In this document: positions 392-49,792 of the stretch, in pieces | How the letters are laid out: each line of letters begins with the position of its first letter | How positions within the stretch are numbered: position 1 is the stretch's first letter | IMG/VR virus record: IMGVR_UViG_2616644925_000001 | Location: 28,537 to 92,536 of that record | Strand: one strand, 5' to 3' | From: a virus | Lineage: Duplodnaviria; Caudoviricetes | Length of the DNA: 64,000 nucleotides | Program-made: the position numbers and the translations under genes | The notes under the pieces: model-generated | What the model was told of the DNA's origin: nothing | Database searches by the model: none | The model's input: the letters and a program-made list of their open reading frames with translations, nothing else

Positions 392-438
392 ACCATGCTT
401 TCAAGTTCATGTATTTTATAGGGAAAATTGCATTTTAC

Positions 439-540
439 GTTAGTCTATTCATGGTAATGGTTAGTCTATTCATGGTGAATGTTAGTCTGTTCATGGTAAT
501 TGTTAGTTTATTCATGGTAGGGTGTTAGTCTATTCATGGT
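439..540 (+). repeat. Origin iterons (incC-like), 5 x 17 bp GTTAGTCTATTCATGGT
   Basis: Copies at 439, 460, 481, 502 and 524 (21-22 bp period) directly upstream of repA. Confidence 0.9.
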
Positions 541-582
541 GACGGCCATAAATATTCACATCACTACAATCAGGCGATATCA

Positions 583-1467
583 ATGGGAAATGGTAATCAA
601 ATCAAGACAATAAATGATGCCTTGTCATTTGTTGGTGGTGAAGAAGGGAAGACTTATACACTGACACCAACGGCTAATAGAACTGTCCAGCCAATAGCAT
701 TGATGCGCCTGGGAGTTTTTGTCCCATCTGCTAAAAATAAGCCCATAGCCGGACGCGGAAACTCCAATATTGACGCATCGGAAGACCTGCGCGAGCTCGA
801 AATAGCTAAGGCTGAGGGCTACACCAACATCAACATCCGCGGCAGTCGCCTTGATATGAGTACAGACTTCAAGACGTGGATAGGCGCTATACGGGCGTTC
901 TCTAAATATGGCGACCACTCCAATCGAATAGAGTTGCCGTTCACTGAATTTGCCAAACTAACGGGCATCGCTGTTGATGACATCAACCAGCGGGCGCGTG
1001 ACCGTTTTTTTGCATCACTTAGCCGCATTGCATCCATCGTGGTTTCATTTAAAAACAAAGACGGCAGTAAAGGCACTATCACCCACTTACTGCAAAGTGC
1101 GACGTTCGATATCGAGAGAGACGTTATCTCGCTGGAGGGCGACTCCAGGCTATGGGAGCTATATGCGTTTGATCATAAAGTCTTGTTGCAGCTTAAGGCC
1201 ATACAGGCATTACCACGCAAGGAATCTGCTCAAGCTCTCTATGTATACATCGAAAGTATGCCAAATGGGTTCATACAGATATCACTGGAGCGTTTGCGTG
1301 AACGGCTTAATCTGACATCCAGTATCAGTGCGCAAAATTTGGCAGTGAGAAATGCTATGAAGGAGCTACAGAAGATAGGCTATCTGACCTACTCAGAAGT
1401 GAAGAAAGATGGGGTAGTGTACTTCCAAATCCATTCGCGCCGCCCGGAGCTGTTACCAGCTGAATGA
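583..1467 (+). CDS. repA: Plasmid replication initiator RepA (P1/RepFIB-like)
   Basis: TVQPIALMRLGVFVP, G.RLDMSTDFKTW and AQALYVYIESMP motifs; flanked by iterons. Confidence 0.92.
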   Translation: MGNGNQIKTINDALSFVGGEEGKTYTLTPTANRTVQPIALMRLGVFVPSAKNKPIAGRGNSNIDASEDLRELEIAKAEGYTNINIRGSRLDMSTDFKTWIGAIRAFSKYGDHSNRIELPFTEFAKLTGIAVDDINQRARDRFFASLSRIASIVVSFKNKDGSKGTITHLLQSATFDIERDVISLEGDSRLWELYAFDHKVLLQLKAIQALPRKESAQALYVYIESMPNGFIQISLERLRERLNLTSSISAQNLAVRNAMKELQKIGYLTYSEVKKDGVVYFQIHSRRPELLPAE

Positions 1468-1468
1468 C

Positions 1469-1692
1469 GTTAGGTGATTCATGGTGAACGTTAGGTGAAA
1501 ACCGGTAACGCACGCATAACGTTAGGTGATTCATGGACGGCATTAGTCTATTCATGGTAAATGTTAGAAAATAGCTGCAATTTTAGGCGTCATGCGGGCG
1601 AAATGCCCTGCACACCATGAATAGACTAACACTGAGCATTGGCTGGTGGTGAGAACCATGAATAGACTAATGCTTGCCATGAATAGACTAAC
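1469..1692. repeat. Copy-control iterons (incA-like), 7 copies in both orientations
   Basis: Direct copies at 1469, 1490, 1521, 1542; inverted copies (CCATGAATAGACTAA) at 1614, 1655, 1676. Confidence 0.85.
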
Positions 1693-1732
1693 ATTCATGC
1701 CATATCTTGTTTGATGTAACTGCTACTGCCCG

Positions 1733-1805
1733 CCACGAAACCAACGACATTTACCGCACACTGTCATCTCGGCTGCCAGCATAAAAAAAGCCGCCCAAAG
1801 GCGGC
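1733..1805 (+). repeat. 73-bp diverged direct repeat, copy 1 (includes a terminator)
   Basis: Aligns without gaps to 2747-2819 with 14 mismatches by hand count. Confidence 0.75.
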
Positions 1806-1811
1806 TTACAG

Positions 1812-1934
1812 TCAGTTGCTATGGATTACTGTCACCGGCACATTGATGCTGGTATTGATGTTCATACCTTCACCTCCGTTTGGATGCAGTAACGCCACCA
1901 GCAATGACACAACGATGAGTCCGTTGCGCTTCAT
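1812..1934 (-). CDS. 40-aa hydrophobic peptide, TimP-like type I toxin candidate
   Basis: MKRNGLIVVSLLVALLHPNGGEGMNINTSINVPVTVIHSN; structured 5' UTR; GCCGCC-TTTG-GGCGGC terminator; divergent sRNA complementary to the UTR. Confidence 0.55.
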   Translation of the reverse strand: MKRNGLIVVSLLVALLHPNGGEGMNINTSINVPVTVIHSN

Positions 1935-2270
1935 TGTGAATGCCTTGCAGGTTATGACCAGTGGCGTTCGGTACGCCCCGCAAGCAAGAGGAAACTTATG
2001 CTTGTGTTCGGTCGGGATTAACAGGACAACAAGGTACCGAATGGGCTGATAATCCCCCTCGCTGTTTTGTCTGAACTTAGCATGCCACAATCATGTGCCT
2101 GGTTTCATTGCCTTTCCGGCATATGCGTCTAAGATTGCGGTAAAAAAGTACTCTATTGACGAAAAAAAAATCAATTAACTAACCGTTTTGTAAAACCACA
2201 CAGTGCCTTTCCTGAAAGAGATTTTCTATACACAAGTTGCAAAGTAGGTCATGCGACGTATACTGGCTTT

Positions 2271-2407
2271 GGAAACTTATGCTTGTGTTCGCTGTTTTAA
2301 GCGAATTAGCAGCGGTGAAGATTGCCTGATAACAATTTTCACCTTCCAGATAAATGCCTGATAACATTTTCTGGATTCAATGAAGCCGCCTACGGGCGGT
2401 TTTTTTG
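2271..2407 (+). ncRNA. Putative antitoxin sRNA (TimR/IstR-like)
   Basis: TTGCAA-16-TATACT promoter (2237-2264); first 21 nt identical to 1990-2010, so antisense to the peptide mRNA leader; intrinsic terminator at 2383-2407. Confidence 0.6.
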
Positions 2408-2746
2408 TTGATGATTTTGACTTACTCTCTACATACAAAATAAGCATGACATAAATAGGCCGCAATACAATACCTTGACCAAACGCAGTTGTTCGTTTTG
2501 TAATGAGAATTAAAAAAATAGTGATAAATATAAATAAGTTAAGCTGTGGATAACTCTTTTTCAATTTTGATCGGGCGCGTATTTGTTATTCAATTGTAAA
2601 AGGATTAAGTAAGACTATTCCAGGCAATTCGTTATGATCTGCAGTATAACATTGTCAGTTTTTTGAAATGCCGCACAATTGTAAACGCGGATACTCGTCA
2701 ACTCTTGATGCTTTCAGTTAGGTGCTTAGTAGCTAACACACTATAC

Positions 2747-2819
2747 CCATGAAACCAGCAACGTTTGTCGCACGCTGTTATCTGGGCCACCAGCATAAAA
2801 AAAGCCACCCGATGGCGGC
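2747..2819 (+). repeat. 73-bp diverged direct repeat, copy 2
   Basis: See copy 1. Confidence 0.75.
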
Positions 2820-2829
2820 CTTTAGTCAA

Positions 2830-3045
2830 TCATATATTATTTTTTAGTAAAGCATAAAGCATTGCTCTGCTGTCGATTGTGTTCCCGTTCAGGTCTTTGC
2901 ACACCCAGTTTTTACGCTGAAACGTGATGTAGCAGTCGGTGCGGTTAATGCGCAGCGGTTCGCTTCTGCCTGCTTCTACAAACCCTTTTGCCTTCCAAAT
3001 GCCGCGCATCTTATCCAGTTCGATCTGCTTCAAACCTAAGTTCAT
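2830..3045 (-). CDS. Hypothetical protein (71 aa)
   Basis: ORF followed by the terminator inside repeat copy 2. Confidence 0.5.
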   Translation of the reverse strand: MNLGLKQIELDKMRGIWKAKGFVEAGRSEPLRINRTDCYITFQRKNWVCKDLNGNTIDSRAMLYALLKNNI

Positions 3046-3127
3046 AGTGATTAAATTCGTAAAATTTTAGAGTGAGCTTATTCTTATATGAAATCGCCCA
3101 CTGGTCAATTCCATATCCTTAATCTTA

Positions 3128-3147
3128 TACTGTGTTTTTATACAGTT
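3128..3147. promoter_or_regulatory. LexA (SOS) box
   Basis: TACTGTGTTTTTATACAGTT = CTG-N10-CAG just upstream of the umuD RBS. Confidence 0.85.
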
Positions 3148-3157
3148 AAAAGGAGGG

Positions 3158-3604
3158 GTGATTATGCGCTTAGAGATAATAGCAATACCTGATGAAGCCG
3201 CGCCCAGACAGGCTTTCAGGCAGTTTCTTGAAACGGTCGCAGCGGGCTTTCCGTCTCCGGCAATCGGATACGAAGATACTCCGCTGGACCTGAACGAGTA
3301 TTGCGTCAGGGCCAAAACGGCCACCTATTTTGTACGCTGCGAGGGTGAGTCGATGATAGGGGCCGGTATTTTTGACGGCGATCTGCTGGTGGTTGATAAA
3401 TCGAAGGCGGCGGCAGACGGCCAGATCGTAATTGCCTCTGTGGACGGGGAGTTTACGGTAAAAAAGCTGCAGCTGAGGCCAGTGCCGATGCTGCTGGCCA
3501 TGAATCCGCGCTATAAGCCGATCCCTGTCGAGCCTGATGGTCTGGAAATATGGGGGGTGGTGACATACGTCATCCACCGTACTGACAATGTTCCTGCACA
3601 GTGA
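3158..3604 (+). CDS. umuD: Pol V subunit UmuD-like (S24 autopeptidase)
   Basis: AGFPSPA cleavage region, GESM catalytic Ser, FTVKKL catalytic Lys. Confidence 0.92.
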   Translation: MIMRLEIIAIPDEAAPRQAFRQFLETVAAGFPSPAIGYEDTPLDLNEYCVRAKTATYFVRCEGESMIGAGIFDGDLLVVDKSKAAADGQIVIASVDGEFTVKKLQLRPVPMLLAMNPRYKPIPVEPDGLEIWGVVTYVIHRTDNVPAQ

Positions 3605-4853
3605 CGTTAATGCCTTCTACGTGTCGGCCGAGCTGGCATTCAGGCCGGACCTTTACGGGCGTCCTGTCGTGGTAGCGACCAACAATGACGGCTGTATTGC
3701 GGCGCTGAACCGCGAGGCGAAAAACGTAGGCCTGAAGCGGGGCGATCCGCTGTTTAAAATCCGCGATACCATCCGACGTTACGGCGTGGTGGTGTTCAGC
3801 AGCAACTACACGCTGTACGACGCATTCAGTAAGCGTTTCCATACGATAGTGGGCGAGTATGTCCCGAACCTGGAAGCGTACTCGATCGACGAGGTGTTTG
3901 GCTCTCTGGACGGCATGGAGAAGCTGGTGGACTTCCAGACGTTCGGAGAAGATATCCGGCGCACCGTAATCCAGCACACCACGATGAAGTGCGGCATAGG
4001 GATAGCAGAGACGAAGACGCTCTGTAAGGTAGCCACGCACGCAGCAAAGACCTGGCCTAAAACAGGCGGCGTGGTGGTGCTGACCGACCCGAAACGGCGC
4101 GACAAGCTGCTATCGTTGCTCGACGTCTCCGAGACGTGGGGTGTCGGCAGAAAGATAGGGGCCAGACTGCAGCTGATGAACATCAAAACCATGCTCGACC
4201 TTGCCCGCGCTGACACAACTATGATCCGCAAAAACTTCAATGTGATGCTGGAGCGCACCGTGCGGGAGCTGCGCGGCGAACGCTGCTTCGAGCTCGAAGA
4301 GAACCCGCCGACTAAGCAGCAGCTGGTGGTAAGCCGTTCGTTCGGCAAACGGCTCACCAGCCTGGATGAAGTGAGTAACGCGGTTTGCTTCTTTGCCACC
4401 AGCGCCGGTGAAAAACTGCGGCGTGAAAAGCAGTACTGCCGGAATATCACGGTATTCATCCAGACCAGCAAACATGATCCGCGCCGCCCGTATTATTCAC
4501 GCGGTGCCAGCCATTCGTTTACGACGGCCACGCAGGATACCCGCGATCTGATTGATGCCGCCGTGCGCGGCCTCAGAGCTATCTGGCGGGAGGGCTATGA
4601 GTATGCGAAGGCCGGAGTGATGCTGGGGGAGATCTGCGGCTCAGAGCAGCAGCTGAACCTCTTTGATGAGTCACCGCCGCGCCCTGGAAGCGATAAGTTG
4701 ATGGCTGTGATGGATAAGCTGAACAGCTACCAGCGCGGCACGCTGTTTATTGCCGGTCAGGGTGTCAATCCGGCCTACCAGATGAAGCGGGAAATGTTAT
4801 CTCCGCGCTATCTGACGCGCTGGGAAGAGCTACCCATCGTAAAGATGAAGTAA
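3588..4853 (+). CDS. umuC: Y-family DNA polymerase UmuC-like
   Basis: DVNAFYVS, NNDGC, YSIDE, SRSFG and MKREMLSPRY motifs. Confidence 0.95.
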   Translation: MFLHSDVNAFYVSAELAFRPDLYGRPVVVATNNDGCIAALNREAKNVGLKRGDPLFKIRDTIRRYGVVVFSSNYTLYDAFSKRFHTIVGEYVPNLEAYSIDEVFGSLDGMEKLVDFQTFGEDIRRTVIQHTTMKCGIGIAETKTLCKVATHAAKTWPKTGGVVVLTDPKRRDKLLSLLDVSETWGVGRKIGARLQLMNIKTMLDLARADTTMIRKNFNVMLERTVRELRGERCFELEENPPTKQQLVVSRSFGKRLTSLDEVSNAVCFFATSAGEKLRREKQYCRNITVFIQTSKHDPRRPYYSRGASHSFTTATQDTRDLIDAAVRGLRAIWREGYEYAKAGVMLGEICGSEQQLNLFDESPPRPGSDKLMAVMDKLNSYQRGTLFIAGQGVNPAYQMKREMLSPRYLTRWEELPIVKMK

Positions 4854-10118: not shown

Positions 10119-10419
10119 ACAGGAAATCAGGGCGCTGTTTCTGGCACACGGCTTCATAATGGAGCAGCAGCCTGATGGCAGTACCGATTTAAACCCTGCC
10201 TGCTACAGCGTCGCTCAGGCGCTTGCAGAGCGGTTTAGCGACATCTATGGTCAACCGGCAGGGAATGTTGAGATTGCCGCTGGTGGTGGCGCAGAGGCAC
10301 GCACAATGGCGCTGTTTCACGACAAAGCAGCCAGCATCGAGTTTCCGACGTTCATCATGCGCCAGCCGTCGCAAAAGCCCGCGCTGGCCACTAGAAAACA
10401 TCCGGCGTCCGGGCGTTAA
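10111..10419 (+). CDS. Hypothetical phage protein
   Basis: IRALFLAHGF..QPDG..DL.P; coupled ORF. Confidence 0.6.
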   Translation: MIKQEIRALFLAHGFIMEQQPDGSTDLNPACYSVAQALAERFSDIYGQPAGNVEIAAGGGAEARTMALFHDKAASIEFPTFIMRQPSQKPALATRKHPASGR

Positions 10420-10781
10420 TGGACGACCGGCTAAGTAAGTTCGGCTGGCTCTCTTTTGAGGGCTGGCCGGACAGTGAAGTTCACGACTATCTCACCACGA
10501 AATGCGGCATCATCCACGCCCGCAAGTTACCGGACGGCAGCTGGACCGGGCTTCTGCGCCTTCTGTATACGCTCAGCGTCTGCATGGGGATCACGCCAAC
10601 GGATGTGTACCAGTATCGCTGGTGTTTCGAAGACCCGGAAGAGGCGGTGTATCTGTGCAAAAACGCCGTGGAAGTAGACGAGATACCGGAGCGCCGGGAG
10701 TCGCTGGTGGGCCACCGGCACACAACCGGGATCCCGCTCTATGTTGAGTTCGACCTGCTGGGCCTGCCAAAGTGGCGTTAA
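10419..10781 (+). CDS. Hypothetical phage protein
   Basis: 120-aa coupled ORF. Confidence 0.6.
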   Translation: MDDRLSKFGWLSFEGWPDSEVHDYLTTKCGIIHARKLPDGSWTGLLRLLYTLSVCMGITPTDVYQYRWCFEDPEEAVYLCKNAVEVDEIPERRESLVGHRHTTGIPLYVEFDLLGLPKWR

Positions 10782-10856
10782 CACTTCTTACTGACTGACC
10801 ACCAGCTATCCGGCTGGTGGCCGGTTATCATTTCAAGCAATTCAGAACGGCAGAAA

Positions 10857-11288
10857 ATGGAAATCAGGATTAAATGCCCGCACTGCGGTTCGGGAAGCGT
10901 CAAGAGCAGCAGGGCGGTCTATGAGCAGGGAACATCAAACACGCGCAGCGTCAGCCACACGGGATGGATATCAAATCGGGGATCGGGCGGCAGCAGGCGA
11001 CAGGGCAAATCAACGCGTCAGTCAGTTGCTGCTTCGCGCAATGCGCCAGCAGGCCGAAAACTGGATGTGCTTATTTTTGTCGCCTCGTTCCTCCTGTCTG
11101 CCTGGCTGATACTCGACATACCGGCGACCACAGTACTGGGTTCGGTAATTGCCGGAGCAATCATCGCATCGCTGATAACCGCGCTGGTGGCGTACCTCAA
11201 CCGGCACAACCGGCGCAGGGCGCGTGAGAACTACAATAGACAGTGGTATTGCAGCAAATGCGGTGACACGTTTTTACGTGACGGTTAA
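10857..11288 (+). CDS. Membrane protein with Zn-ribbon termini
   Basis: CPHCGS at N-terminus, two hydrophobic helices, WYCSKCG at C-terminus. Confidence 0.7.
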   Translation: MEIRIKCPHCGSGSVKSSRAVYEQGTSNTRSVSHTGWISNRGSGGSRRQGKSTRQSVAASRNAPAGRKLDVLIFVASFLLSAWLILDIPATTVLGSVIAGAIIASLITALVAYLNRHNRRRARENYNRQWYCSKCGDTFLRDG

Positions 11289-15414: not shown

Positions 15415-16677
15415 TTACTTTATTCTTACGATGTCTTCAAGTCGCGTGGTGTATCGAGGTGACAGCATTTCACGCTTCATCTGCCACGCGCTGTCTTGCT
15501 CTCCCTGTCCTGCGAAGAATATCTTCCCCTTCCCGGAGCGATTGATAGCATCCAGCGCGGCCATCAGCGCATCTGCGTTTGCCCGCGGCTGCTGCTCACT
15601 GAACATGTCAAACTGCGCCACACCAGATTGATAAAAATCACCCAGCATTACGCCAGCTTTGGCGTACCGGTAGCCGTCGCGCCAGATGGCACTCAGCCCG
15701 CGTAGCGCAGACTCAATAATGTCCCGTGTGTCGCTGGTGGGGTAGTCGCAAACGCATGAGGCGGTATTCGAATACTGAGGCTCGTTTGCGTGCCTGGCGG
15801 TAGCGATCGACACGCTGATATGTCGGCAACGCGAGTTCTGCTCTCTCAGCTTTTCTCCGGCACGGGTGGCATAGAGTGTGACGGCCTGCTTCATGTCCTC
15901 CAGCTCAGTGATCTTCTCACCAAATGAGCGTGAGTTGAGGATGTTCTGCTTCGGCGGCGGCGCGTCTTCCAGTGCGATACAGGACTCGCCATTGAGCTCG
16001 CGGGTGGTGCGCTCAACGATGACATCAAAGTTTTTCCGAATCATGCTGATGTTGCTGTCCGCCAGCTGCAGAGCCGTGGTGATCCCCAGCTGGTGCATGC
16101 GCTTAGTAATGCGAGGGCCAATACCCCAGATATCGCCGACGTCGGTCAGGTGAAGCAGCTTTCGCTGCCGGGTACGGCTGGACAGGTCTACCACGCCCTG
16201 TGTCTGCGTCCATTTCTTCGCGGCATGGTTTGCCAGCTTGGCCAGCGTCTTCGTTGGGCCGAAGCCTACGCCGATGATCAGGCCGGTTTCTTGCCGGATG
16301 CGCTCACGCATCTGGTGTCCAAACGTCTCAAGTGGGATCAGATTGCTAATGCCGGTGACGTCCAGAAATGACTCGTCGATAGAGTAAACCTCCTGTCCTG
16401 CAGCCATTTCACCCAGTATGGCCATCATGCGCGCCGACATATCGCCGTAAAGCTCATAGTTGGAACTGAACACATGCACACCGTTCTGCCTGAAAAAACG
16501 CTCATTCAGAAACAGCTGCGCCGCCATCTTGATCCCCAGGCGCTTTGCCTCCGCCGAACGTGCGATCACGCAGCCGTCATTGTTCGAAACGACGACAATC
16601 GGTTTACCACGCAGATCGGGCCTGAACACGGTTTCACAGGAGGCATAAAAGTTATTGGCATCGGCCAGCGCAAACAT
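15415..16677 (-). CDS. umuC: Second UmuC-like Y-family polymerase
   Basis: DANNFYASCE, SNNDGC, YSIDE, SRSFG, WQMKREMLSPRYTT. Confidence 0.95.
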   Translation of the reverse strand: MFALADANNFYASCETVFRPDLRGKPIVVVSNNDGCVIARSAEAKRLGIKMAAQLFLNERFFRQNGVHVFSSNYELYGDMSARMMAILGEMAAGQEVYSIDESFLDVTGISNLIPLETFGHQMRERIRQETGLIIGVGFGPTKTLAKLANHAAKKWTQTQGVVDLSSRTRQRKLLHLTDVGDIWGIGPRITKRMHQLGITTALQLADSNISMIRKNFDVIVERTTRELNGESCIALEDAPPPKQNILNSRSFGEKITELEDMKQAVTLYATRAGEKLREQNSRCRHISVSIATARHANEPQYSNTASCVCDYPTSDTRDIIESALRGLSAIWRDGYRYAKAGVMLGDFYQSGVAQFDMFSEQQPRANADALMAALDAINRSGKGKIFFAGQGEQDSAWQMKREMLSPRYTTRLEDIVRIK

Positions 16678-16679
16678 GT

Positions 16680-17057
16680 TTATTCTCCTGCTGGCCCGTT
16701 AAAGCCGATCCCGGCTACATCGGTCAGGGCATAAGCCACTACACCCCACACAGGAAGCGCCTGGCTTACATCGAGCAGCGTTACAGTTTCGTCCGTGTCC
16801 AGCGCCTGAAGGGCGGGAACCGGATTAAGCAGCAACCGCCTTAATGTCAGTTCGCCGTCAAATTCAGCAACGATTAGCTGGCCGTGTACCGGCTTCAGGG
16901 CGCGATCGATGGCCAGCACGGAGCCTTTGACAATTCCGGCGCCGGCGCAGTCAGTTTCGCTTCGCATGAGATAGGTTGAGTAAGGGGAAAGGGATACCAG
17001 ATCGCCCAGATTCAGGCGCGTTTCAGTATAGTTCTGGGCGGGGCTCTGAAAGGCCAT
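16680..17057 (-). CDS. humD: HumD-like (pre-truncated UmuD' homologue)
   Basis: Starts MAFQSPA, the equivalent of the post-cleavage GFPSPA; catalytic Ser/Lys motifs replaced. Confidence 0.75.
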   Translation of the reverse strand: MAFQSPAQNYTETRLNLGDLVSLSPYSTYLMRSETDCAGAGIVKGSVLAIDRALKPVHGQLIVAEFDGELTLRRLLLNPVPALQALDTDETVTLLDVSQALPVWGVVAYALTDVAGIGFNGPAGE

Positions 17058-22298: not shown

Positions 22299-23378
22299 AT
22301 GCCTAACTTCAGCGATGTAGAATTTGAGAAGCGTTATAAACATTTTCTACAGGTACAGACCGAGTGGCTGACTCTCATCACGGACAACCTGATTTTCATT
22401 GATAAAAACGCCCTGGGCGAAGAATGCCGCCCGATCGGCTTTATCACTGACAAGAAGACCTTTCAGCGCGCAGAGCATCTGCTGGCAGACTGGCAGAGCT
22501 TTGCCGACCTGGCTGAAGAGAAGCGCCAGGCGCGCTCTATCGCGATCACGACGAACCTTTACCTTCCGGTGCCGACCCTGATCATAGAGCCGAAGCACGT
22601 TACGATTAACCGCTTCCGTGCAACAGCGACCGCGAACCACACCCGCGAAGATATCCTGAAGCGCTATGAGAAGCAGATCGGCAAGCTGCGCAAGGTTCCG
22701 TTCGCTGCCGGTGCCATCATGTCGCTGGAAGATGAAATGAAGGCGTTTGAAGCCGCCGCTCCTGGCGCAATGTACCGCGCCCGCACCAGCAACTACTCTG
22801 ACATTCAGGTGACTGCGCGCTACACCGACGACAAAAAAGACGAAGGCGAATCGTTCCGTTATGGCGCGCATGGCATGCTCATCTACGGTGAGAACCTGAA
22901 TAAAGAGCGTGATATCAAGCTGAACGTTAACAGCAATGGCGGTTACACGTCCTCTTACGACGTGATCTCACCAGTAGCATGCTCAGTACTGCCGAATGCC
23001 AAGTTGTACACGATGGAAGACGTGGATTACAGCAAGCAGCTGGCCGCGCAGCGTTCCTCTGTGGCCTACACAGTGAACACGCGCCGCGCTCAGTTTGAGA
23101 ACAGGGCAAAGGCTAAGATTGCGAAGGCAAAAGACGCAGGTGAAGCACGTCTGTTTAAGGCTGAAATAGACGAGAACCGCGACCTGTTGGAAAAGCTGGA
23201 AGCATACGACTGGGCGCTGCTGGAGAAGAAGGTAGCAGCAGGCGACACCGAACAGCTGACCATGCCAGAGATCCGCAAGCGCTATGGCGGCGAAGAGCCA
23301 CGCGCTGGTAAGAACATGCGCAATATGTACAGCCTGCTGCGTGAGCTGGAAAGTAACCTGAAAAATCAGGGCAAATAA
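22299..23378 (+). CDS. c1: C1-like primary repressor
   Basis: Colinear similarity to P1 C1 (LPVP.L, S.YD.I.P..C..P.AK.Y...D); lies between cre and pacB. Confidence 0.8.
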   Translation: MPNFSDVEFEKRYKHFLQVQTEWLTLITDNLIFIDKNALGEECRPIGFITDKKTFQRAEHLLADWQSFADLAEEKRQARSIAITTNLYLPVPTLIIEPKHVTINRFRATATANHTREDILKRYEKQIGKLRKVPFAAGAIMSLEDEMKAFEAAAPGAMYRARTSNYSDIQVTARYTDDKKDEGESFRYGAHGMLIYGENLNKERDIKLNVNSNGGYTSSYDVISPVACSVLPNAKLYTMEDVDYSKQLAAQRSSVAYTVNTRRAQFENRAKAKIAKAKDAGEARLFKAEIDENRDLLEKLEAYDWALLEKKVAAGDTEQLTMPEIRKRYGGEEPRAGKNMRNMYSLLRELESNLKNQGK

Positions 23379-30210: not shown

Positions 30211-30801
30211 TTACACCAGTTTCCAGTCGCTTGCGAGAAGATCCGTTGAGGCTGGCGCCCAGTCGGAGACAGTCAGCTTTTCTGTATCAACGAGCAAAAG
30301 CTGGGGCATCTGAGTTACGGCCACATCCTGGCTGCAATCAAAGTAGCGGGCCGGTACACCGTATATATCAGAACCGTTCAATGCTGCGCGTGTCAGCCCT
30401 CTGGTGAGGTGCAGATAAACACCCTTCCCCCATGCTGCCCGCGCCACTTTACAGCCCTCTGATAGCCACAGCTGGGCGACGGCCAGTGGTGCTTGCTCCT
30501 GCCTGAAATTTAGTTCGCCCTTCTCAATCAGCGCTTCATTGCGCAGAATCAGATCATTCAGCTTAATCAGCGCGGCACAGGCGGCGTGGTTCAACGTTTC
30601 ACCATAACCGGTCATTGTGAGGCCACTTTTGCTGATAACGGCTGCGTATCCGTCAGTTTTGGTCTCAGACGTCTCTGTAATGGTGTATCCCAGGCGGGCA
30701 ATGACAGCCAGCAGCGCCATGTAATCACCTGCATAGTCTGCTTCTGCGTCTGCAATCATGGCGATGGTTGAATTTAACTGTTGAGCGGTCATCATTATCA
30801 A
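30211..30801 (-). CDS. ABA-sandwich-like domain fused to a DUF2829/Tad2-like domain
   Basis: C-terminal GCKVARAAWGKGVYL...WAPASTDLLASDW; N-terminal YAGD...GET..HAACAAL. Confidence 0.7.
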   Translation of the reverse strand: MIMMTAQQLNSTIAMIADAEADYAGDYMALLAVIARLGYTITETSETKTDGYAAVISKSGLTMTGYGETLNHAACAALIKLNDLILRNEALIEKGELNFRQEQAPLAVAQLWLSEGCKVARAAWGKGVYLHLTRGLTRAALNGSDIYGVPARYFDCSQDVAVTQMPQLLLVDTEKLTVSDWAPASTDLLASDWKLV

Positions 30802-34781: not shown

Positions 34782-35081
34782 TTACAGTAGTTTCAGCGCC
34801 GTTACGGCTATGGCGGCGACAGTGACAATCATCAGTACATTCAGCAGTACTGACGGCACTTTAATCTCGCCGGTCTCATACTCTGCCTGCGTCATCCTGC
34901 CCAGGTAGCTGTGTGAGATCAGCACTGCGTTTTCGTCAAAGCTCAGCGTAGCCCGAACGTTCTCCAGCGCCTGGCGAGATATCTGACGTGTGGCCAGCTG
35001 CACGACTCCGGATCGCATCTTCCCGTTGTCGCCCATGTAGCAGACCGTATGGTAGTGGTATGGCTTACCCTGCCCCATCAA
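34782..35081 (-). CDS. Hypothetical protein with C-terminal TM helix
   Basis: LISHSYLGRMTQAEY; hydrophobic tail. Confidence 0.65.
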   Translation of the reverse strand: MMGQGKPYHYHTVCYMGDNGKMRSGVVQLATRQISRQALENVRATLSFDENAVLISHSYLGRMTQAEYETGEIKVPSVLLNVLMIVTVAAIAVTALKLL

Positions 35082-35596
35082 CTGATAACTACCCAGTCGC
35101 TGACGCGCATATCGTTAATGCTCAGATCGTGAATCTCAACGCCGCCGTCCGGTCGGGTCAGCATCAGCACATCACAGCCTTCATGCTCCTGCTCCAGCGA
35201 CACAAAGTAACCCACCTCCCACGCTTCCCGCCGCATCAGCAATTCTGGATCCTCTTTCATTTTCAGCAAGGCGCGGTCATAGCTGCACGTAATGGCACCG
35301 ATTCCAATTTTGTTCAAACCTTCAATCTGTGCCGTAGTCATGCGTCCGCGTCCCTCTGTTAATGATTTTCTCAAGATGTAACTGATCCCCTTCACGCCGC
35401 CGAAATAGTTCAGCTGGCGGTTACTCATGCCGCTGCGCGACATAAGCTCCTGTTTCGGTACTCTGAAAATGCCGACGTCCATAGCCATGTCGGCAAAAAC
35501 CGAAAGCCCCCGGCCCAAGCCGTCACGCGTTTTTTTACGGCGCGCATACTGCTCAAAGGTCGGGCATCCGGTAAAAAACTGCGCGTCAAAAAGCAC
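35078..35596 (-). CDS. Protein with C-terminal DUF2829/Tad2-like domain
   Basis: YDRAL..MK....MRREAW..GYFV...LSINDMRVSDWVV. Confidence 0.6.
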   Translation of the reverse strand: MLFDAQFFTGCPTFEQYARRKKTRDGLGRGLSVFADMAMDVGIFRVPKQELMSRSGMSNRQLNYFGGVKGISYILRKSLTEGRGRMTTAQIEGLNKIGIGAITCSYDRALLKMKEDPELLMRREAWEVGYFVSLEQEHEGCDVLMLTRPDGGVEIHDLSINDMRVSDWVVIS

Positions 35597-44264: not shown

Positions 44265-44343
44265 TGTGTAACTTTCCCTCAGATTGCATAAAGCGAATAT
44301 GATTTATTGGATTCTAAAGGTTTATTAAATAAGGCGTATAAAT

Positions 44344-46044
44344 TTGACTAATAAAAATAAGGCTTTGTCCGTTTTAAGCGCATTGAGGCAGGCATTCCGG
44401 GGAGCGACGACACAGGCACCACAGAGCCTTGCCTGGACCAACGGACAGAATGTGGTCGTCTCACGCTCCGGGCTGGCGGCGATGGCCTACAACGAGGGAA
44501 AGGCGGGGGAAATGACTTCCGCTGGTGATAGTCTTTACCTGGGCGCGGAGCTGCCGCTGGACAGGCTGCAGCGCTATGCAATTCTGGAGGAAATGGCGAA
44601 TAGTCCGACGTGCTCAGCCGCGCTGAATATTCACATCGGCCACGCACTCTCGCCGGATAAAAAAACCGGGCTTGCATTCGCTATCGTGCCGGTCGATCCG
44701 TCCGACGAAGAAGGCGCGGCGCGGGCGAAAGAGCTGCAGGACGATCTGGGCGCGATGATTAACCGGCACCTGCCGTCGCTGGCCATGACGATGGCCATTT
44801 TCGGCGTCTCCTACGTGCGCCCTTATGCCCGGACCGGGAAAGGGATCACCAGCCTGGAAAACAGCTATTATTCGTTGCCCTACTTCATTCAGGAGTTTTA
44901 CAAAGGCGATCAGCTGGTGGGATTCGGCGGTGACTACGTGCTGGCACCCGATACCCACACCCGCACACTATCAACCCCGTGGTCTCTGGTTTCGATGAAA
45001 AATCCGTACTGGACCCCGACACGCAACGTTCAGCCCGTGACGTCCGGCAATCGTGGTTACTCTCTGCTATCAGAGGAAGAGGACAAGGAGGTTGCGGAGA
45101 CACAGAACTACGGCACCAGCTTCCTGGCGCATGCCTATGAGCCTTTCCTGAATCTGGTCGGCGCGCTGAATGCGCTGAAGGCAACACGCTACAACGCCGC
45201 CAAAATTGACCGCCTTATTGCCCTGACAACCAACTCACTCGATCCGGTGGTCGGTGCGAACTACACCCGCACTGTGTCGCAGACGCTCAAGCGCCACGGC
45301 GAAGCACTCCAGAAAAAAGCGGTTAACGGCAACACAATGCCAACCGTTATGAACCATGTGATCCCGGTGATGGGAGAAGGTAAAAACGGCATTACGATCG
45401 ATACGCAGTCGATACCCGCGGACATTACCGGCATTGAGGACGTGATGTTTCACCTGCGCCAGCTGTGCGCTGCGCTCGGTATCGACTCGACTATGCTGGG
45501 CTGGGCCGATCAGATGGCGGGCGGGCTGGGTGAAGGCGGCTGGATTCAGACGGCTATACAGGCGGCACTCCGGGCGCAGTGGCTGCGACAGGGCGCGCAG
45601 GAAATGATTTACCGGCTGATCGATATTCACCTGGCATTCAAATACGGCAAAGTTTACCCGGTTAAGGATCGGCCCTATGTAGTTCAGTTCAACTCAATGA
45701 ACACCGCCATTCAGGAAGAAGAAAACCGGGAATTGGACGCCCGCGCCAACTTCATTACCCTGATGGTGCAGGTCATGGACGCGCTGCAGGCTAACAACAA
45801 GCTGGCGGAGAACGACACGTTCATGCGCTACCTGTTCAGCGATCAGCTGAAAATGGACGGCGGCACGCTCGACAAAATGCTGGCGGAGTTTGAGAAGAGC
45901 AGGAAGAAGGCGGACGCGCAGGATGAGGAAGGCGGTAATGGCAGCATGATGAATGAATCAGCGCCTGGCGGTTCGGATCCGGAAAGCTGGACGCATGACG
46001 AGCTGGTGGCATTTGCCCGTTATGTGACAACACCCGACAACTGA
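44344..46044 (+). CDS. prt: Portal protein Prt
   Basis: LP.DRLQRY.ILEEMA, GVSYVRPY, GGLGEGG; divergent from darB as in P1. Confidence 0.85.
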   Translation: MTNKNKALSVLSALRQAFRGATTQAPQSLAWTNGQNVVVSRSGLAAMAYNEGKAGEMTSAGDSLYLGAELPLDRLQRYAILEEMANSPTCSAALNIHIGHALSPDKKTGLAFAIVPVDPSDEEGAARAKELQDDLGAMINRHLPSLAMTMAIFGVSYVRPYARTGKGITSLENSYYSLPYFIQEFYKGDQLVGFGGDYVLAPDTHTRTLSTPWSLVSMKNPYWTPTRNVQPVTSGNRGYSLLSEEEDKEVAETQNYGTSFLAHAYEPFLNLVGALNALKATRYNAAKIDRLIALTTNSLDPVVGANYTRTVSQTLKRHGEALQKKAVNGNTMPTVMNHVIPVMGEGKNGITIDTQSIPADITGIEDVMFHLRQLCAALGIDSTMLGWADQMAGGLGEGGWIQTAIQAALRAQWLRQGAQEMIYRLIDIHLAFKYGKVYPVKDRPYVVQFNSMNTAIQEEENRELDARANFITLMVQVMDALQANNKLAENDTFMRYLFSDQLKMDGGTLDKMLAEFEKSRKKADAQDEEGGNGSMMNESAPGGSDPESWTHDELVAFARYVTTPDN

Positions 46045-46181
46045 CCAGCGTTTAAAAAAACCGCACATCCAGGGGATGTGCGGTTGATAAACGCCTTATC
46101 AATGCGATACAGAAGGATGTGAAATAAGAGTGATATTTAGCCGTCCTGTAAATCAATAACCCAGAGAGACTGACAGGCAGC

Positions 46182-46484
46182 TTATTTTTTCTGCGGCTTT
46201 CGGGCGGTGTTTAATAAAACAGACGCATCAGATTCAGCTGCATTTATCTCAGGAAGTGCCGCGCAGTATGGACACGGCATCACCCCTTTGTAACTTCGTT
46301 TTGCCACGCTCAGTGCCTGTAACAGTGAATAACAGCTGCCAATAAATGTCCTGCCTTCCTTAGCGGGTAGCCGGGGACAGTCAATCCGGTGCAGCAGTAA
46401 CCCGCTGTTACCGTGGTCACTGACGTAGAACTTTATGGCGCTGTACATGCCATATCCTTTTGCTGCGTGTAATGGAAGTACCAT
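46182..46484 (-). CDS. Small Zn-binding protein (HxxxC...CxxC), paralogue A
   Basis: LHRIDCPRLP...FIG...CPYC; likely start at MYSAIK. Confidence 0.65.
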   Translation of the reverse strand: MVLPLHAAKGYGMYSAIKFYVSDHGNSGLLLHRIDCPRLPAKEGRTFIGSCYSLLQALSVAKRSYKGVMPCPYCAALPEINAAESDASVLLNTARKPQKK

Positions 46485-47039
46485 TCGGAATTGTTGCTAT
46501 TCGTAATTATCCATAATCCGTGATAGCCGCAGTCGTGTCTATGTAAAATTTATATATCGAACTTTTTCACATTAGCTCGTCTGCGTTAACAAAATTTAGC
46601 ACTCTAGTTTTAATTTTAAAACATTTTTTAGTGAACTCTATATTTATCCTGTCCTAATCACCATTCGCATTGTTTACAATGTAATCACTTAGTGGCATGT
46701 AAATCCCTGAATTTCAATCTTTACATCGGAAAATCTTAGCCAATTCAGTATATCTAATGAGAATTATGCTAGGCTAAAAAAGCCATGTAAAAATGAATTT
46801 TACTGCATTGCATTTTATCGCCCTACCTAAACTCATTAAATAAAACAAGAGGTAATTTTACCCTGATCATTAAAATTATTGCTTCCTGTTTAGTTAACAC
46901 CAAAAATTATTATTAAGGGTTATTATGTTAATGCTTAATAACATCTTAATTGCAGGCAAAAAAAACCGCACTTGAGTAAGCCTTCGTGCGGTTACAGACA
47001 GCCACTTTTCAGAAAGCTGCTTTGCGATATTGGATGCAG

Positions 47040-47504
47040 CTAATTAGGCCAGTCATAAACAAAATGTTGTACAGCAACAGCCTCAACACCTTTTTTAATT
47101 TTCACAACCTGCTGCGGACCGGCCTGCTCCCGCGCAATTGCCTGTTTCATCAGTGGAGCAGCAGGCTTAACAGGCTGGCATGCCTGCGTCGCTATCGCCT
47201 TCTTTGCTTTGGGCGCAGGCCTCTTTTTAGGTTTCTGACTGAGATTAAGCAGTCGCTCCTTGCGGGAGTCTTTTTCTTCAGGATTCTGGATTTTTAAACA
47301 TTCTGGGCATCGCTCAGAATTACTGTGATGGCCCAGTGCCACAGTCATTGCCTGTTGCGGGGTGTAGAGCGTGCCGATAAATATCCGGCTTTCAGGCGTT
47401 TTTGGGAGAAGTTTACAGCCTTCACGGTGCATCAGAATACCGCTTTCATGGTGAAAGCAGACATAGTATTTCTTAGCCTCTAACATGCTAATTCCTTTAT
47501 GCAA
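47040..47504 (-). CDS. Small Zn-binding protein, paralogue B with basic tail
   Basis: MHREGCKLLP...FIG...CPEC; likely start at MLEAKK after AAGGA. Confidence 0.65.
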   Translation of the reverse strand: MHKGISMLEAKKYYVCFHHESGILMHREGCKLLPKTPESRIFIGTLYTPQQAMTVALGHHSNSERCPECLKIQNPEEKDSRKERLLNLSQKPKKRPAPKAKKAIATQACQPVKPAAPLMKQAIAREQAGPQQVVKIKKGVEAVAVQHFVYDWPN

Positions 47505-47568
47505 TATTGATCCTGTTTAAACAGGAGAAAGATAATGATATTGATTATTATTATTGGTAGTTGGTCTG

Positions 47569-47589
47569 CGGGTATGGAGCCTGTAAATT
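47569..47589 (-). promoter_or_regulatory. Putative late promoter
   Basis: AATTTACAGGCTCCATACCCG. Confidence 0.55.
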
Positions 47590-47714
47590 CAGCCTGGCAC
47601 TAAATTTTACGTACCCGAATGAGAATCCGAGGCGTACAGAGTTAATCAAAGTAAATTAACGGACGCAACCTGAACCGGACCTGATATCTCAGCCATAAGC
47701 AAAATCATGACGCT

Positions 47715-47972
47715 TCAGTGTAGCAGCGAAATAACTCTCCAGTCAGCTGAAATAATGTCGTCAGGAGTAGGATCATAAAAAGACAGTACGCCTGACTCGC
47801 TCATGACAATAAACTGCCTCTGACTGTCAGCGTCTGTTTCAGTGAATACATGAACAGGTGTATCGCCCCATTTGGTACGACGACAGATATTACTGTCCGT
47901 CTGGCTGATAGCTGTCATGGCGTGGTTGAAACCTGTTTCCGCCTGGGGTGGCGTGTCGGGGATATCAGACAT
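47715..47972 (-). CDS. DUF2829/Tad2-like small protein
   Basis: FNHAM.AI...CRRTKW...YDPTPDDIISADWRV; GGAG RBS. Confidence 0.65.
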   Translation of the reverse strand: MSDIPDTPPQAETGFNHAMTAISQTDSNICRRTKWGDTPVHVFTETDADSQRQFIVMSESGVLSFYDPTPDDIISADWRVISLLH

Positions 47973-48023
47973 GAAATGCTCCCTGTGCTTTGAGACGCGT
48001 CACAACGGGAGGTTCCAATCTCC

Positions 48024-48105
48024 GGGTGGTGACGTTGACAGGGTTGGAACTACCGGTGCACAAGAAAACCGGCCTACCCGAAGGTAGCCCCACCAACGCC
48101 ACCAT
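48024..48105 (-). ncRNA. c4: C4-type antisense RNA
   Basis: Cloverleaf TGGTGGCGTTGGTGGGG/CCCTGTCAACGTCACCA, CTACC-TTCG-GGTAG, single-stranded TTCTTGTGC and GTTCCAA; matching targets upstream (48159-48183) and downstream (47980-48018). Confidence 0.85.
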
Positions 48106-48308
48106 TGATACGCCCGGATTCATCCGGACGTGGTAGCGCCGAAGGCACTATGTGCCAGTTCTTATGCTTTGGCAGGGTTCCAATCCTGACCGCTAAACTC
48201 ATGCGGCGCGCACACTATAGCCACCATGCTGATAAATTCAATATGTCTTATGTGAAATTATCCACTGGTCATTAGATCCAGATGCGACTGAATAATCGCT
48301 AACCTCAT

Positions 48309-48329
48309 AAATTACAACCTTTCTACCAT
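48309..48329 (+). promoter_or_regulatory. Putative late promoter (pro)
   Basis: AAATTACAACCTTTCTACCAT. Confidence 0.55.
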
Positions 48330-48399
48330 CCCTTCGCGCTGGTGATCGCCTGCGCTGCCGCCGCTTTGCGGGGTATCCCATTGTGATTATGAGGTTTTT

Positions 48400-49401
48400 A
48401 TGAACACTCTCCGCACTGTTACGGACCGTTTTTCTCTGATTGATAAAATCCGCCGCTTCACGCCACAGAATGACCGCAATTACCTGCTGCGCTCTGTCCG
48501 CGAAACGTTCGCCAGCCCCGAAACCCTGGAGCGAATCCAGCTGGGGGAAATGTTCGGGTATTACGGCCACGGACGCCGTGCCGCCTATTACGCCAAGACC
48601 GGGCGGCTCAATCTGCCGGAATTTGCAGTTGTCATGATCGACGGCAAGCCGGTGACGCTGGAAAACGTGCCGTCTAACCGGACGCTTGAGGCCAGCGTGG
48701 ATGATAACGGTATCGTGACGCACGTTCAGGAGATCCTGGACACCGAGCCTGGCAATATCGTTGACGGCATGAACCGTTCCCGCGCCGGTGGCTGGTCATG
48801 GGCGACAGGCGGCGATGACAACGCCATTTCCAAAGTGACCAGCTTTCACGGCTTCGATTATGTGACCAATCCGAACTATATCAGCCAGGATCACCCTGCT
48901 CTTCTGCTTGAATCGGCCAGCGAACGCGCTGACGCGATGCACGCGGGCCTGATGGAAAAGGGGTATTCAGAGAACCAAGCGGCTGACATTATCCAGCACT
49001 TTGAAACACTGCGCGGCCAAGCGCCAATGATGGAGTCTGCTGATTCTTCGCTGATGGAATCTGCGCTTCACATTGAGCATGGAAAGCGTCTGGAGCTGGA
49101 GGAACGTCTGCGAAATGCGCAGCTGATGATTGAGAACGCAGGCACTGTCGCAAAGGCACGCCGCCGAATTATGAAGGATGCGCTGGCTAACATGCCGCTT
49201 TTTTTAAGTAAAGCCCAACAGGCGGCACTATGCCGGATGGATACGCCAGAAGACGCGCAGATCGTCGCGGCAATGCTGGAATCAATCGGCACAAGTGCAA
49301 CGGCAACGCTGCCGATCGGAACCGCCTACCAGCACACATTACCAGAGACGCGCCCGCCAGCCGTGGCCTCAGCACCGCTGCTGTGGATTAACCTAAGATA
49401 A
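48400..49401 (+). CDS. pro: Head-processing protease Pro
   Basis: TVTDRFSL, GYYGHGRR, GGWSWATGG, GFDYVT.PNY. Confidence 0.85.
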   Translation: MNTLRTVTDRFSLIDKIRRFTPQNDRNYLLRSVRETFASPETLERIQLGEMFGYYGHGRRAAYYAKTGRLNLPEFAVVMIDGKPVTLENVPSNRTLEASVDDNGIVTHVQEILDTEPGNIVDGMNRSRAGGWSWATGGDDNAISKVTSFHGFDYVTNPNYISQDHPALLLESASERADAMHAGLMEKGYSENQAADIIQHFETLRGQAPMMESADSSLMESALHIEHGKRLELEERLRNAQLMIENAGTVAKARRRIMKDALANMPLFLSKAQQAALCRMDTPEDAQIVAAMLESIGTSATATLPIGTAYQHTLPETRPPAVASAPLLWINLR

Positions 49402-49792
49402 GAAGAGGAAAAAGAAATCGTGCCCTGAAAATAGGGGCACGTTTTAGTGATAACTAAAAATTAGGAAAAAACTGAGTGTTGATCCTTTATCGGATCACGT
49501 TTATCATCCGGCCTCAAATTCAGTTTAGCGGCTGAATATGAAGACGAAAAAAAATCGCCTGTTAGCGCAGACGATTTTTAAACAACATTGCGTGGTTTAG
49601 CGGACCACACCGGCGTTGTGCCGTACAACTTCTTTGGTAGGAAGTTGCTTTTAAACCACTGACTCAGGCATTGCACCTGTTGTCTCGTGGAGGACACCAT
49701 CTCTTAATTCCCAGTAGCAGGGAGTTAAAGCGTGCCCGTATCCCAAACAGGAAGGAACAAAAAATAATGTCCAACTTGAAGGAACAAAAAGC

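Follow-up and report, generated by a model that had tools for sequence, protein, structure and literature searches.

The C4 RNA is the textbook antisense repressor of the antirepressor of bacteriophages P1 and P7. It is processed by RNase P from a longer precursor to an RNA of roughly 77 nt, and in P1 the translation of icd is coupled to the transcription of ant. The heteroimmunity of P1 and P7 resides in the specificity of the b' loop of C4, with matching targets. The C4 locus analyzed here lies on the minus strand of a 64,000-nt stretch of phage DNA (bases 28537-92536 of the 92,536-bp virus record IMGVR_UViG_2616644925_000001; this whole stretch is called the window below), where the RNA stands directly upstream of an 85-amino acid open reading frame (ORF) of the Tad2 fold. 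In P1, Ant is a secondary antirepressor, full repression requires C4, and Icd blocks cell division, as described in the accessible part of an earlier study (PMC8198154).

Tad2-family genes are already known in elements of this kind, since DefenseFinder matches to "Tad2 AcrIIA7" were reported for 93% of D6-type and 56% of P1-type phage-plasmids; the accessible part of that report does not mention coupling to C4 (10.1101/2025.09.12.675607). Our literature searches turned up no link between C4 and Tad2 or DUF2829, although the homologue lists of Tad2 papers could include the clade described below, and no mention of antisense control was found in the Tad2 papers searched. Both families, that of the RNA and that of the protein, were known before, as was their occurrence apart from each other in P1- and D6-type elements. 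A conserved coupling of C4 to a Tad2-fold gene, with natural specificity variants, appears to be new.

An immI-like module with a different first ORF

Three P1-type elements served for comparison. P1 has one C4 gene (48337-48422 in P1 coordinates), followed by the Ant match at 48688. In the P1-like phage ON470615, which has two C4 genes, the order is a1/b1, C4, a2/b2, icd, ant, with b2 lying over the sequence AAGGAGG and 54 nt separating C4 from the ATG. The P1 relative D6 (MF356679) carries two modules of C4, icd and antirepressor with spacers of 46 and 54 nt; a third C4-like match in D6, below threshold at 40.2 bits, was seen at 75792-75871 on the minus strand, about 470 nt upstream of the C4 at 75233-75320. 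For the window, a first-pass annotation made from the sequence alone had proposed a complete C4 circuit with a promoter of the form TTGAAT-16-TATAGT. Every element that it named was found on the minus strand, with the promoter at 48241-48214 and the order promoter, a1/b1, C4, a2/b2, 85-aa ORF from 48241 to 47715, as follows.

48236..48241, minus strand: −35 element TTGAAT, from a promoter scan; the same hexamer occurs in 16/16 unique related regulatory regions
48214..48219, minus strand: −10 element TATAGT, with a 16-nt spacer from the −35 element; TATAGT in 18/19 unique sequences, TTTAGT in locus L015
48177..48183, minus strand: a1 target TTGGAAC, complementary to C4 a'; invariant, 19/19 unique sequences
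48158..48167, minus strand: b1 target GCATAAGAAC, also written GCATAAGAA(C), complementary to C4 b' with one G-U
48022..48109, minus strand: C4 antisense RNA, Rfam RF01695, 83.5 bits against a gathering score of 45, E 6.4e-15
48058..48067, minus strand: C4 b' loop UUUCUUGUGC, read from the sequence
48044..48050, minus strand: C4 a' GUUCCAA, exact complement of a1 and a2
48012..48018, minus strand: a2 target TTGGAAC, paired with a' in 99.2% of cells of the alignment described below
47979..47988, minus strand: b2 target GCACAGGGAG; b'-b2 helix paired in 97.6% of cells
47715..47972, minus strand: 85-aa Tad2-fold ORF (protein P0003), candidate for gating by C4; Pfam PF11195, 27.7 bits against a cut-off of 25

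The RF01695 match spans model positions 1-87 of 87 with no non-standard pair flagged, and C4 occurs once in the 92.5-kb genome. Weak Rfam matches to isrK, trpB and snoRNA families were all under their cut-offs; we attribute them to chance, or in the case of isrK to its overlapping the C4 leader. The b' loop is predicted to pair with both b1 and b2 by way of G-U wobbles. The Shine-Dalgarno sequence AGGGAG (47979-47984) lies inside b2, 6 nt ahead of the ATG at 47972, and the 3' end of C4 is 49 nt from that ATG. The proposal that the last target covers the ribosome-binding site of the ORF therefore holds, and in its RF01695 RNA, in its order of promoter, a1/b1, C4 and a2/b2, and in the position of b2 over the Shine-Dalgarno sequence of the first ORF the window resembles the immI of P1 and P7.

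The resemblance ends at the first ORF. In the window this ORF has a Tad2 fold and is unrelated to Icd: BLASTP against the Icd of the P1-like phage gave E 2.1, and no alignment was obtained with either of the two D6 Icd proteins. An overlapping ant gene is missing behind it, and the location of the module is between prt and pro instead of beside kilA-repL. The claim that no icd, ant or kilA comes after the module was also borne out, the next ORFs having no Pfam family. Across the whole 92.5-kb genome there were no homologues of P1-type Icd or Ant (the Ant query matched P1 and ON470615 as positive controls, 2/2) and no ANT domain (PF03374), and PHROG and Pfam scans of the genome ORFs gave no antirepressor or KilA family. 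Conversely, P1 and ON470615 contain neither a PF11195 gene nor a match to the profile of the clade of the window ORF. D6 is closer in position, since one of its C4 modules, located between darB/lysozyme and repL-pro, is near darB and pro and thus in broadly the same setting as that of the window, but both D6 modules drive icd and an antirepressor of the Roi/Rha/KilA type, and the two genes with PF11195 that D6 carries, near 88.1 kb and 5.1 kb, are not adjacent to any C4. With C4, icd and antirepressor genes in P1 and D6, and a Tad2-fold ORF here at the same distance of 46-54 nt, the description of the module as rewired from icd-ant is a fair one.

The promoter match covers 9/12 positions. The 2.6-kb region contains 9 promoter-like sites, compared with 4.1 +/- 2.2 in shuffled sequences, so the scan is weak by itself; the conservation of both hexamers is given in the list above. 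The operator consensus of P1 C1 had 0 matches in the window with up to 3 mismatches, but the resident repressor is only 23% identical to P1 C1 and may recognize a different operator. The conserved stretch upstream of the −35 element has no second copy in the window, and these searches thus gave no sign of a repressor-controlled promoter.

C4 is linked to the ORF and its b' loop co-varies with b2

We collected 28 loci encoding relatives of the ORF (22 + 1 + 2 on viral contigs and 3 on metagenome contigs) and 2 plasmid loci. A C4 at or above the gathering score was located directly upstream of the ORF in 30/30 loci (2/2, 20/20, 3/3 and 5/5). Some loci are redundant (L033 and L036 are one contig present in two collections), and the set corresponds to 19 unique regulatory sequences including the window. 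The linkage extends to a distant clade with proteins 26-37% identical to the window ORF, and the distance from the C4 3' end to the ATG is 45-56 nt across the linked loci. Related complete genomes had exactly one C4 in 5/5 cases and an Ant homologue in 0/5.

The C4 sequence is near-invariant except in the b' loop, and its 3' tail CACCACCC is conserved among the related sequences. Pairing was counted for 17 distinct sequences over the 17 a'-a2 and b'-b2 pairs. Standard pairs occupy 98.3% of these cells, compared with 34-48% when the partner is slid by 1-3 columns. Two b'-b2 pairs show changes on both sides, from U-A to C-G in 6 sequences and from G-C to A-U in 8, making 14 cells changed on both sides. 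Neither the observed paired fraction nor the covariation score was reached in any of 500 shuffles (0/500), whereas the number of two-sided pairs, 2, is ordinary, being reached in 299/500. Because the sequences are related, we regard the covariation as supportive and not as a probability. There are exceptions: the b2 of L031 has one A-C mismatch, and in L015 the last base of a2 is altered.

Four types of b' loop were distinguished. With the loop CUCCUCGUAC, both b1 and b2 are its exact complement GUACGAGGAG, and in relatives with another b' loop b1 has switched to the exact complement GTACGAGGAG. In every loop type b1 is complementary to C4, the exception being the hybrid found in L009 and L010, which combines a b1 of loop type B with a C4 and b2 of type A. 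As in P1 and P7, then, specificity types differ in the b' loop and the targets change to match. In locus L011 the C4 loop and its targets are of type B, yet the ORF agrees with the type-A locus of the window at 83/86 positions (85 residues and the stop); this mosaic implies that recombination took place inside the first few codons. At L009:1710-1967 and L010:3001-3258 the Tad2-fold ORF is interrupted at codon 10 by an in-frame TAG, a nonsense allele of natural origin.

Taken at the level of sequence, C4 control of the Tad2-fold ORF is well supported, and its anatomy, strict linkage and covariation make it very probable that C4 represses translation of this ORF.

The 85-aa protein has a Tad2 fold

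Substitutions between the ORF and its relatives pile up at third codon positions (one example being 15, 11 and 36 substitutions at first, second and third positions), and because of this excess we consider the ORF a real coding gene. It had been described as DUF2829-like, and the Pfam match agrees: PF11195, now named Tad2-like, was formerly DUF2829. A six-frame search scored the ORF at 27.3 bits, and relatives reached 29.4 bits (L002) and 30.4 bits (L032), with L031 under the cut-off at 22.7 bits. Searches of NCBIfam, PHROGs and PADLOC returned nothing for the 85-aa ORF, tblastn against 50,697 phage records gave no match, and scans of genome contigs for the distant clade yielded none that was confirmed. 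A word-indexed homologue search returned 8 proteins including the query, the 7 relatives being 66-91% identical; two relatives from Pantoea bear the NCBI name "Thoeris anti-defense Tad2 family protein". When a profile was run exhaustively against 1.84 billion representatives, only 22 proteins came out at E ≤0.001; 13 of them are 68-90 aa in length and the others are long, with short repeated partial matches. Residues A18, C30, R31, R32, W35, H41, G61, P68, D77 and W78 are invariant in an alignment of 19 sequences.

Searching the Protein Data Bank with the single sequence found only chance matches to ankyrin repeats (E 0.3 or worse). With the profile, the top four matches were Tad2 proteins (SPO1 gp34.65 twice, ModTad2 and a Myroides phage Tad2), at weak E values of 0.01-0.07. 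The AlphaFold2 model has a mean pLDDT of 84.1 and contains a helix (H10-24) and five strands, that is, the N-terminal helix and five-stranded antiparallel sheet that define the Tad2 fold. When the model was submitted to Foldseek, ranks 1-24 were all Tad2-family chains (E ~1e-4, TMq 0.63-0.69, TMt up to 0.79). VIA-align gave Z scores of 9.1-10.5 for ten Tad2-family entries, with root mean square deviations of 1.7-2.4 over 67-69 residues, and the next fold scored 4.0. Membership of the ORF in the Tad2 fold is therefore solid.

The ORF resembles the Tad2/AcrIIA7 sponges SPO1 gp34.65, ModTad2, SptTad2 and HgmTad2 in fold, in PF11195 membership and in size (85 versus 89 aa). According to the accessible part of the SPO1 Tad2 preprint, residues W25, N26, W73, D79, T78, S76 and H71 hold glycocyclic ADP-ribose (gcADPR) (10.1101/2023.05.01.538930). 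For the contacts listed there, a profile alignment places W25 at W35, which is invariant in the clade, and D79 at D72, which is nearly invariant. Two further contacts are replaced conservatively, W73 by Y66 (Tyr or Phe in the clade) and S76 by T69 (Thr or Ser), so that an aromatic residue is kept at the position of W73.

Two other proteins of the genome carry this domain. A second PF11195 domain forms the C-terminus of a 196-aa protein (window 30211-30801, minus strand; 42.8/41.5 bits) and a sub-threshold one the C-terminus of a 172-aa protein (window 35078-35596, minus strand; 20.4 bits), with no C4 near either.

A proposed C4-timed counter-defence gene and its alternatives

We propose that the conserved sigma-70 promoter would give rise to one RNA containing a1/b1, C4, a2/b2 and the 85-aa ORF. 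From this precursor the tRNA-like C4 would be excised, presumably by RNase P, and would accumulate as in P1 immI. Its a' (GUUCCAA) and b' (UUUCUUGUGC) segments would then pair with a2 and b2, and ribosomes would be kept off the ORF because b2 holds the Shine-Dalgarno sequence. In the plasmid-prophage state the pool of C4 would silence the gene, and when the genome enters a C4-free cell the first transcripts would be translated in a short burst. The protein would most likely be a small oligomer that soaks up a nucleotide immune signal, of the Thoeris/TIR type or related; such a sponge may help the phage at entry but would compromise the immunity of its own host if expression continued. The timing, oligomeric state and ligand in this scheme are extrapolated from what is known of P1 immI and of related Tad2 proteins, by analogy with which a sponge expressed in a burst on entry and silent in the lysogen is plausible. 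Aca-controlled anti-CRISPR operons provide a strong early burst of anti-defence expression followed by shut-off through a regulator of the same operon. The proposed logic is the same, as an analogy only, with the difference that here regulation would fall to a processed antisense RNA, at the level of translation, and not to a DNA-binding repressor.

For the explanation as a whole, a Tad2-fold counter-defence gene timed by C4, our estimate of the probability is roughly 0.55. Fold, partly conserved pocket and context suggest a signal sponge or another anti-defence factor, and for this role of the protein we consider the odds about even. If the gating by C4 is true, temperate phages would have in it an RNA-based solution to a general problem, namely how to deploy counter-defence at entry without crippling the immunity of the host cell in which they go on to live. 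The RNA device itself is conserved throughout a lineage of P1-like phage-plasmids, where its cargo is a member of the anti-Thoeris sponge family. The system is small and modular, and the natural loop types with their compensating targets constitute a ready-made swap experiment.

Several observations weigh against this explanation. The Pfam score is barely over the cut-off, and identity to solved Tad2 proteins is 13-20%. Three of the SPO1 contacts listed in the accessible text are altered in the profile alignment (N26 to G36, T78 to D71 and H71 to S64). The model is without a helix between strands 2 and 3, which in SPO1 Tad2 contributes to the dimer interface according to the sections of that work available to us. 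The invariant motif C30 R31 R32 ... H41 is special to the clade of the window ORF among the Tad2/AcrIIA7 proteins compared, and could signal a different job. The second PF11195 protein of the same genome, which scores higher, is not linked to C4, and all other C4-type modules inspected have cargo of the antirepressor type (the P1-like modules, the two of D6 and Shae_phiSM, the last with a weak "Derepression" match). On the RNA side, the Rfam check proposed along with the circuit succeeded for C4 and failed for c4-a1b1 (RF03163), whose match at 48169-48220 scores 26.4 bits, under the gathering score of 46.7, although a1 and b1 are still complementary to C4; at every locus listing a c4-a1b1 match the score is below this cut-off (26.4-43.3 bits in all, 31.2-43.3 bits when the window is set aside). 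Expression was looked up in 4 of 24 runs. In each of X4 and X6, two runs labeled RNA-Seq (Logan contigs), a phage-plasmid relative about 90% identical is represented by a contig of 98,191 nt in which the flanks are covered as well (window 44300-49500). This contig is probably DNA, which suggests carry-over of DNA or a mislabeled library, and these two runs are therefore uninformative on transcription. The raw RNA-read runs X20 and X24, with 0 reads, are likewise uninformative.

The antirepressor-type cargo of the other inspected C4 modules is also the starting point of a different explanation, in which the Tad2-fold protein replaces Icd/Ant as the immI effector of this lineage, acting as an antirepressor of the C1-like repressor or as a blocker of the cell cycle, and C4 stays a classical element of secondary immunity with no part in host defence. 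A C1-like repressor is indeed kept in the genome (window 22299-23378; 23% identity to P1 C1, E 1.8e-11) without Ant, an ANT domain or Icd, so that an antirepressor may be called missing. The clade's own CRR...H motif and the P1/P7-style heteroimmunity suggested by the b' specificity types point in the same direction. In a Citrobacter P2-like phage, a C4-like stretch precedes a 76-aa ORF that matches "Derepression" weakly. Against such an effector, the fold and the retained Trp, Asp and aromatic positions are those of signal sponges, and the module lies away from immC and the lytic replicon, inside a hot spot of defence and anti-defence cargo. Descriptions of the Tad2 family, as far as the accessible parts of the reports go, cover inhibition of Thoeris, Pycsar and CBASS and not binding of repressors; an earlier speculation in the same material, that the family inhibits type II CRISPR-Cas/Cas9, came with no demonstrated binding. 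On balance we consider an immI effector unlikely, although it is the strongest of the alternatives.

The small ORF whose translation is blocked by an antisense RNA has, in addition, the layout of a type I toxin-antitoxin system, in which the ORF would be an addiction toxin restrained by C4. The RefSeq label of the orthologue on Pantoea plasmids is "MW1434 family type I TA system toxin", and P1 Icd, the usual target of C4, is growth-inhibitory in the accessible part of one report (PMC11897509). The MW1434 label, however, traces to a bioinformatic assignment in a table, in the accessible part of its source, and not to toxicity data for that gene (PMC6266405), and NCBIfam has no match for the 85-aa protein. 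The protein has no long hydrophobic segment of the kind common in type I toxins and is modeled as a soluble alpha/beta Tad2 domain; several Tad2 homologues, in the parts of the literature available to us, were expressed in cells and still inhibited defence. The nonsense allele of L009 and L010 does not discriminate between a toxin and the other explanations. We regard an addiction module as quite improbable. That the adjacency is merely historical, with C4 a relic or acting elsewhere and the ORF expressed independently, would fit the c4-a1b1 score under the Rfam cut-off but is scarcely credible in view of the 30/30 loci linked at 45-56 nt, the compensatory changes between the C4 loop and the target covering the Shine-Dalgarno sequence, and the single C4 of a genome that offers no other candidate target operon.

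Returning to C4-timed counter-defence, a further consequence can be imagined, namely that the C4 pool of a resident phage silences the Tad2-fold gene of an incoming relative in trans and exposes the incomer to the signaling immunity of the host. C4 would then be a weapon between phages as well as a timer, excluding superinfection by disarming anti-defence, and the four b' types, the changes in b1 and b2 and the mosaics (the window versus L011; L009/L010) would be escape variants. We hold this extension to be doubtful.

Genome and cargo region

The source record has direct terminal repeats and is rated 100% complete. PHROG annotation (115 ORFs, and 7 ORFs around the locus) identifies a P1-type phage with PmgB-, PmgC-, PmgG- and PmgS-type head genes, Lpa, a nuclease resembling Ref, a PacA/PacB-type terminase and a Cre-like recombinase. 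It also encodes a Dar anti-restriction set comprising Ulx, a 2290-aa DarB-sized protein, Hdf, DdrA and a DarA-type protein. The nearest public records are Pantoea plasmids of about 90 kb with 83-85% identity, and megablast of the locus against phages gave no match. The C4 module sits between the darB/ulx and the ddrA/darA/hdf anti-restriction clusters, in the gap between the portal and head-processing genes; these and the cargo next to the Tad2-fold ORF are listed here.

48400..49401, plus strand: pro-like head-processing gene, phrog_1801, called "head processing protein" in Pantoea plasmids; divergent left flank
47040..47504, minus strand: orf154, 210 nt (47505-47714) 3' of the Tad2-fold ORF; absent in L022; variable cargo
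46957..46993, minus strand: terminator-like hairpin AACCGCAC-14 nt-GTGCGGTT with a T-run after orf154, read from the sequence
44344..46044, plus strand: portal gene (prt-like), phrog_1497, E 9.9e-211; right boundary of the variable cargo region

Within the gap between pro and prt, C4 and the Tad2-fold ORF form a constant core and the downstream part is variable. Downstream cargo is lacking in L022 and consists of small ORFs of no known function in L014, L030 and the window. In two distant relatives, L031 (3375-5774) and L032 (3362-5814), a PtuA/PtuB-like pair of ATPase and HNH genes comes next after the Tad2-fold gene in the same orientation, which places a defence system beside a candidate for counter-defence. 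The pair is of the Septu type (PADLOC PDC-M01A/B, E 1e-187 and 1e-111; Pfam AAA_21 and HNH). With Dar clusters flanking the region and a Septu-like pair in these two relatives, the gap fits a site for defence and counter-defence cargo, and the analysis flags it as a cargo hot spot of these phages.

No terminator-like site was found by the scan between the Tad2-fold ORF and orf154, and the two are possibly co-transcribed; the terminator after orf154 was itself missed by the scan because of its long loop. No Pfam, PHROG, NCBIfam or PADLOC family was assigned to orf154, and its Atlas lead scores below 0.9. For orf100 (46182-46484, minus strand) the Pfam, NCBIfam and PADLOC searches gave no family, the only match being phrog_4298, of unknown function. 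At their N-termini the two proteins have in common a domain of some 70 aa in which Cys/His positions are conserved, and a 13-nt repeat, AAAAAAACCGCAC, is common to the terminators after orf154 and after orf100 (the latter at 46059-46085).

Elsewhere in the genome, two separate pairs of UmuD-like and UmuC-type polymerase genes are present (window 3158-4853, plus strand, and 15415-17057, minus strand). In L008, an 874-aa DNA methyltransferase (393-3790, minus strand; genome 17392-20789) adjoins a queuine tRNA-ribosyltransferase-like gene (phrog_887), and the pair is possibly a DNA-modification module. The same locus has an ORF resembling HEPN RiboL-PSP at 10212-11003, with 27.7 bits slightly below the cut-off of 28.4. 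Finally, a palindrome with a TCCTGTTTAAACAGGA core lies just 5' of the start of orf154 (window 47504-47533) and could be an operator or an RNA hairpin.

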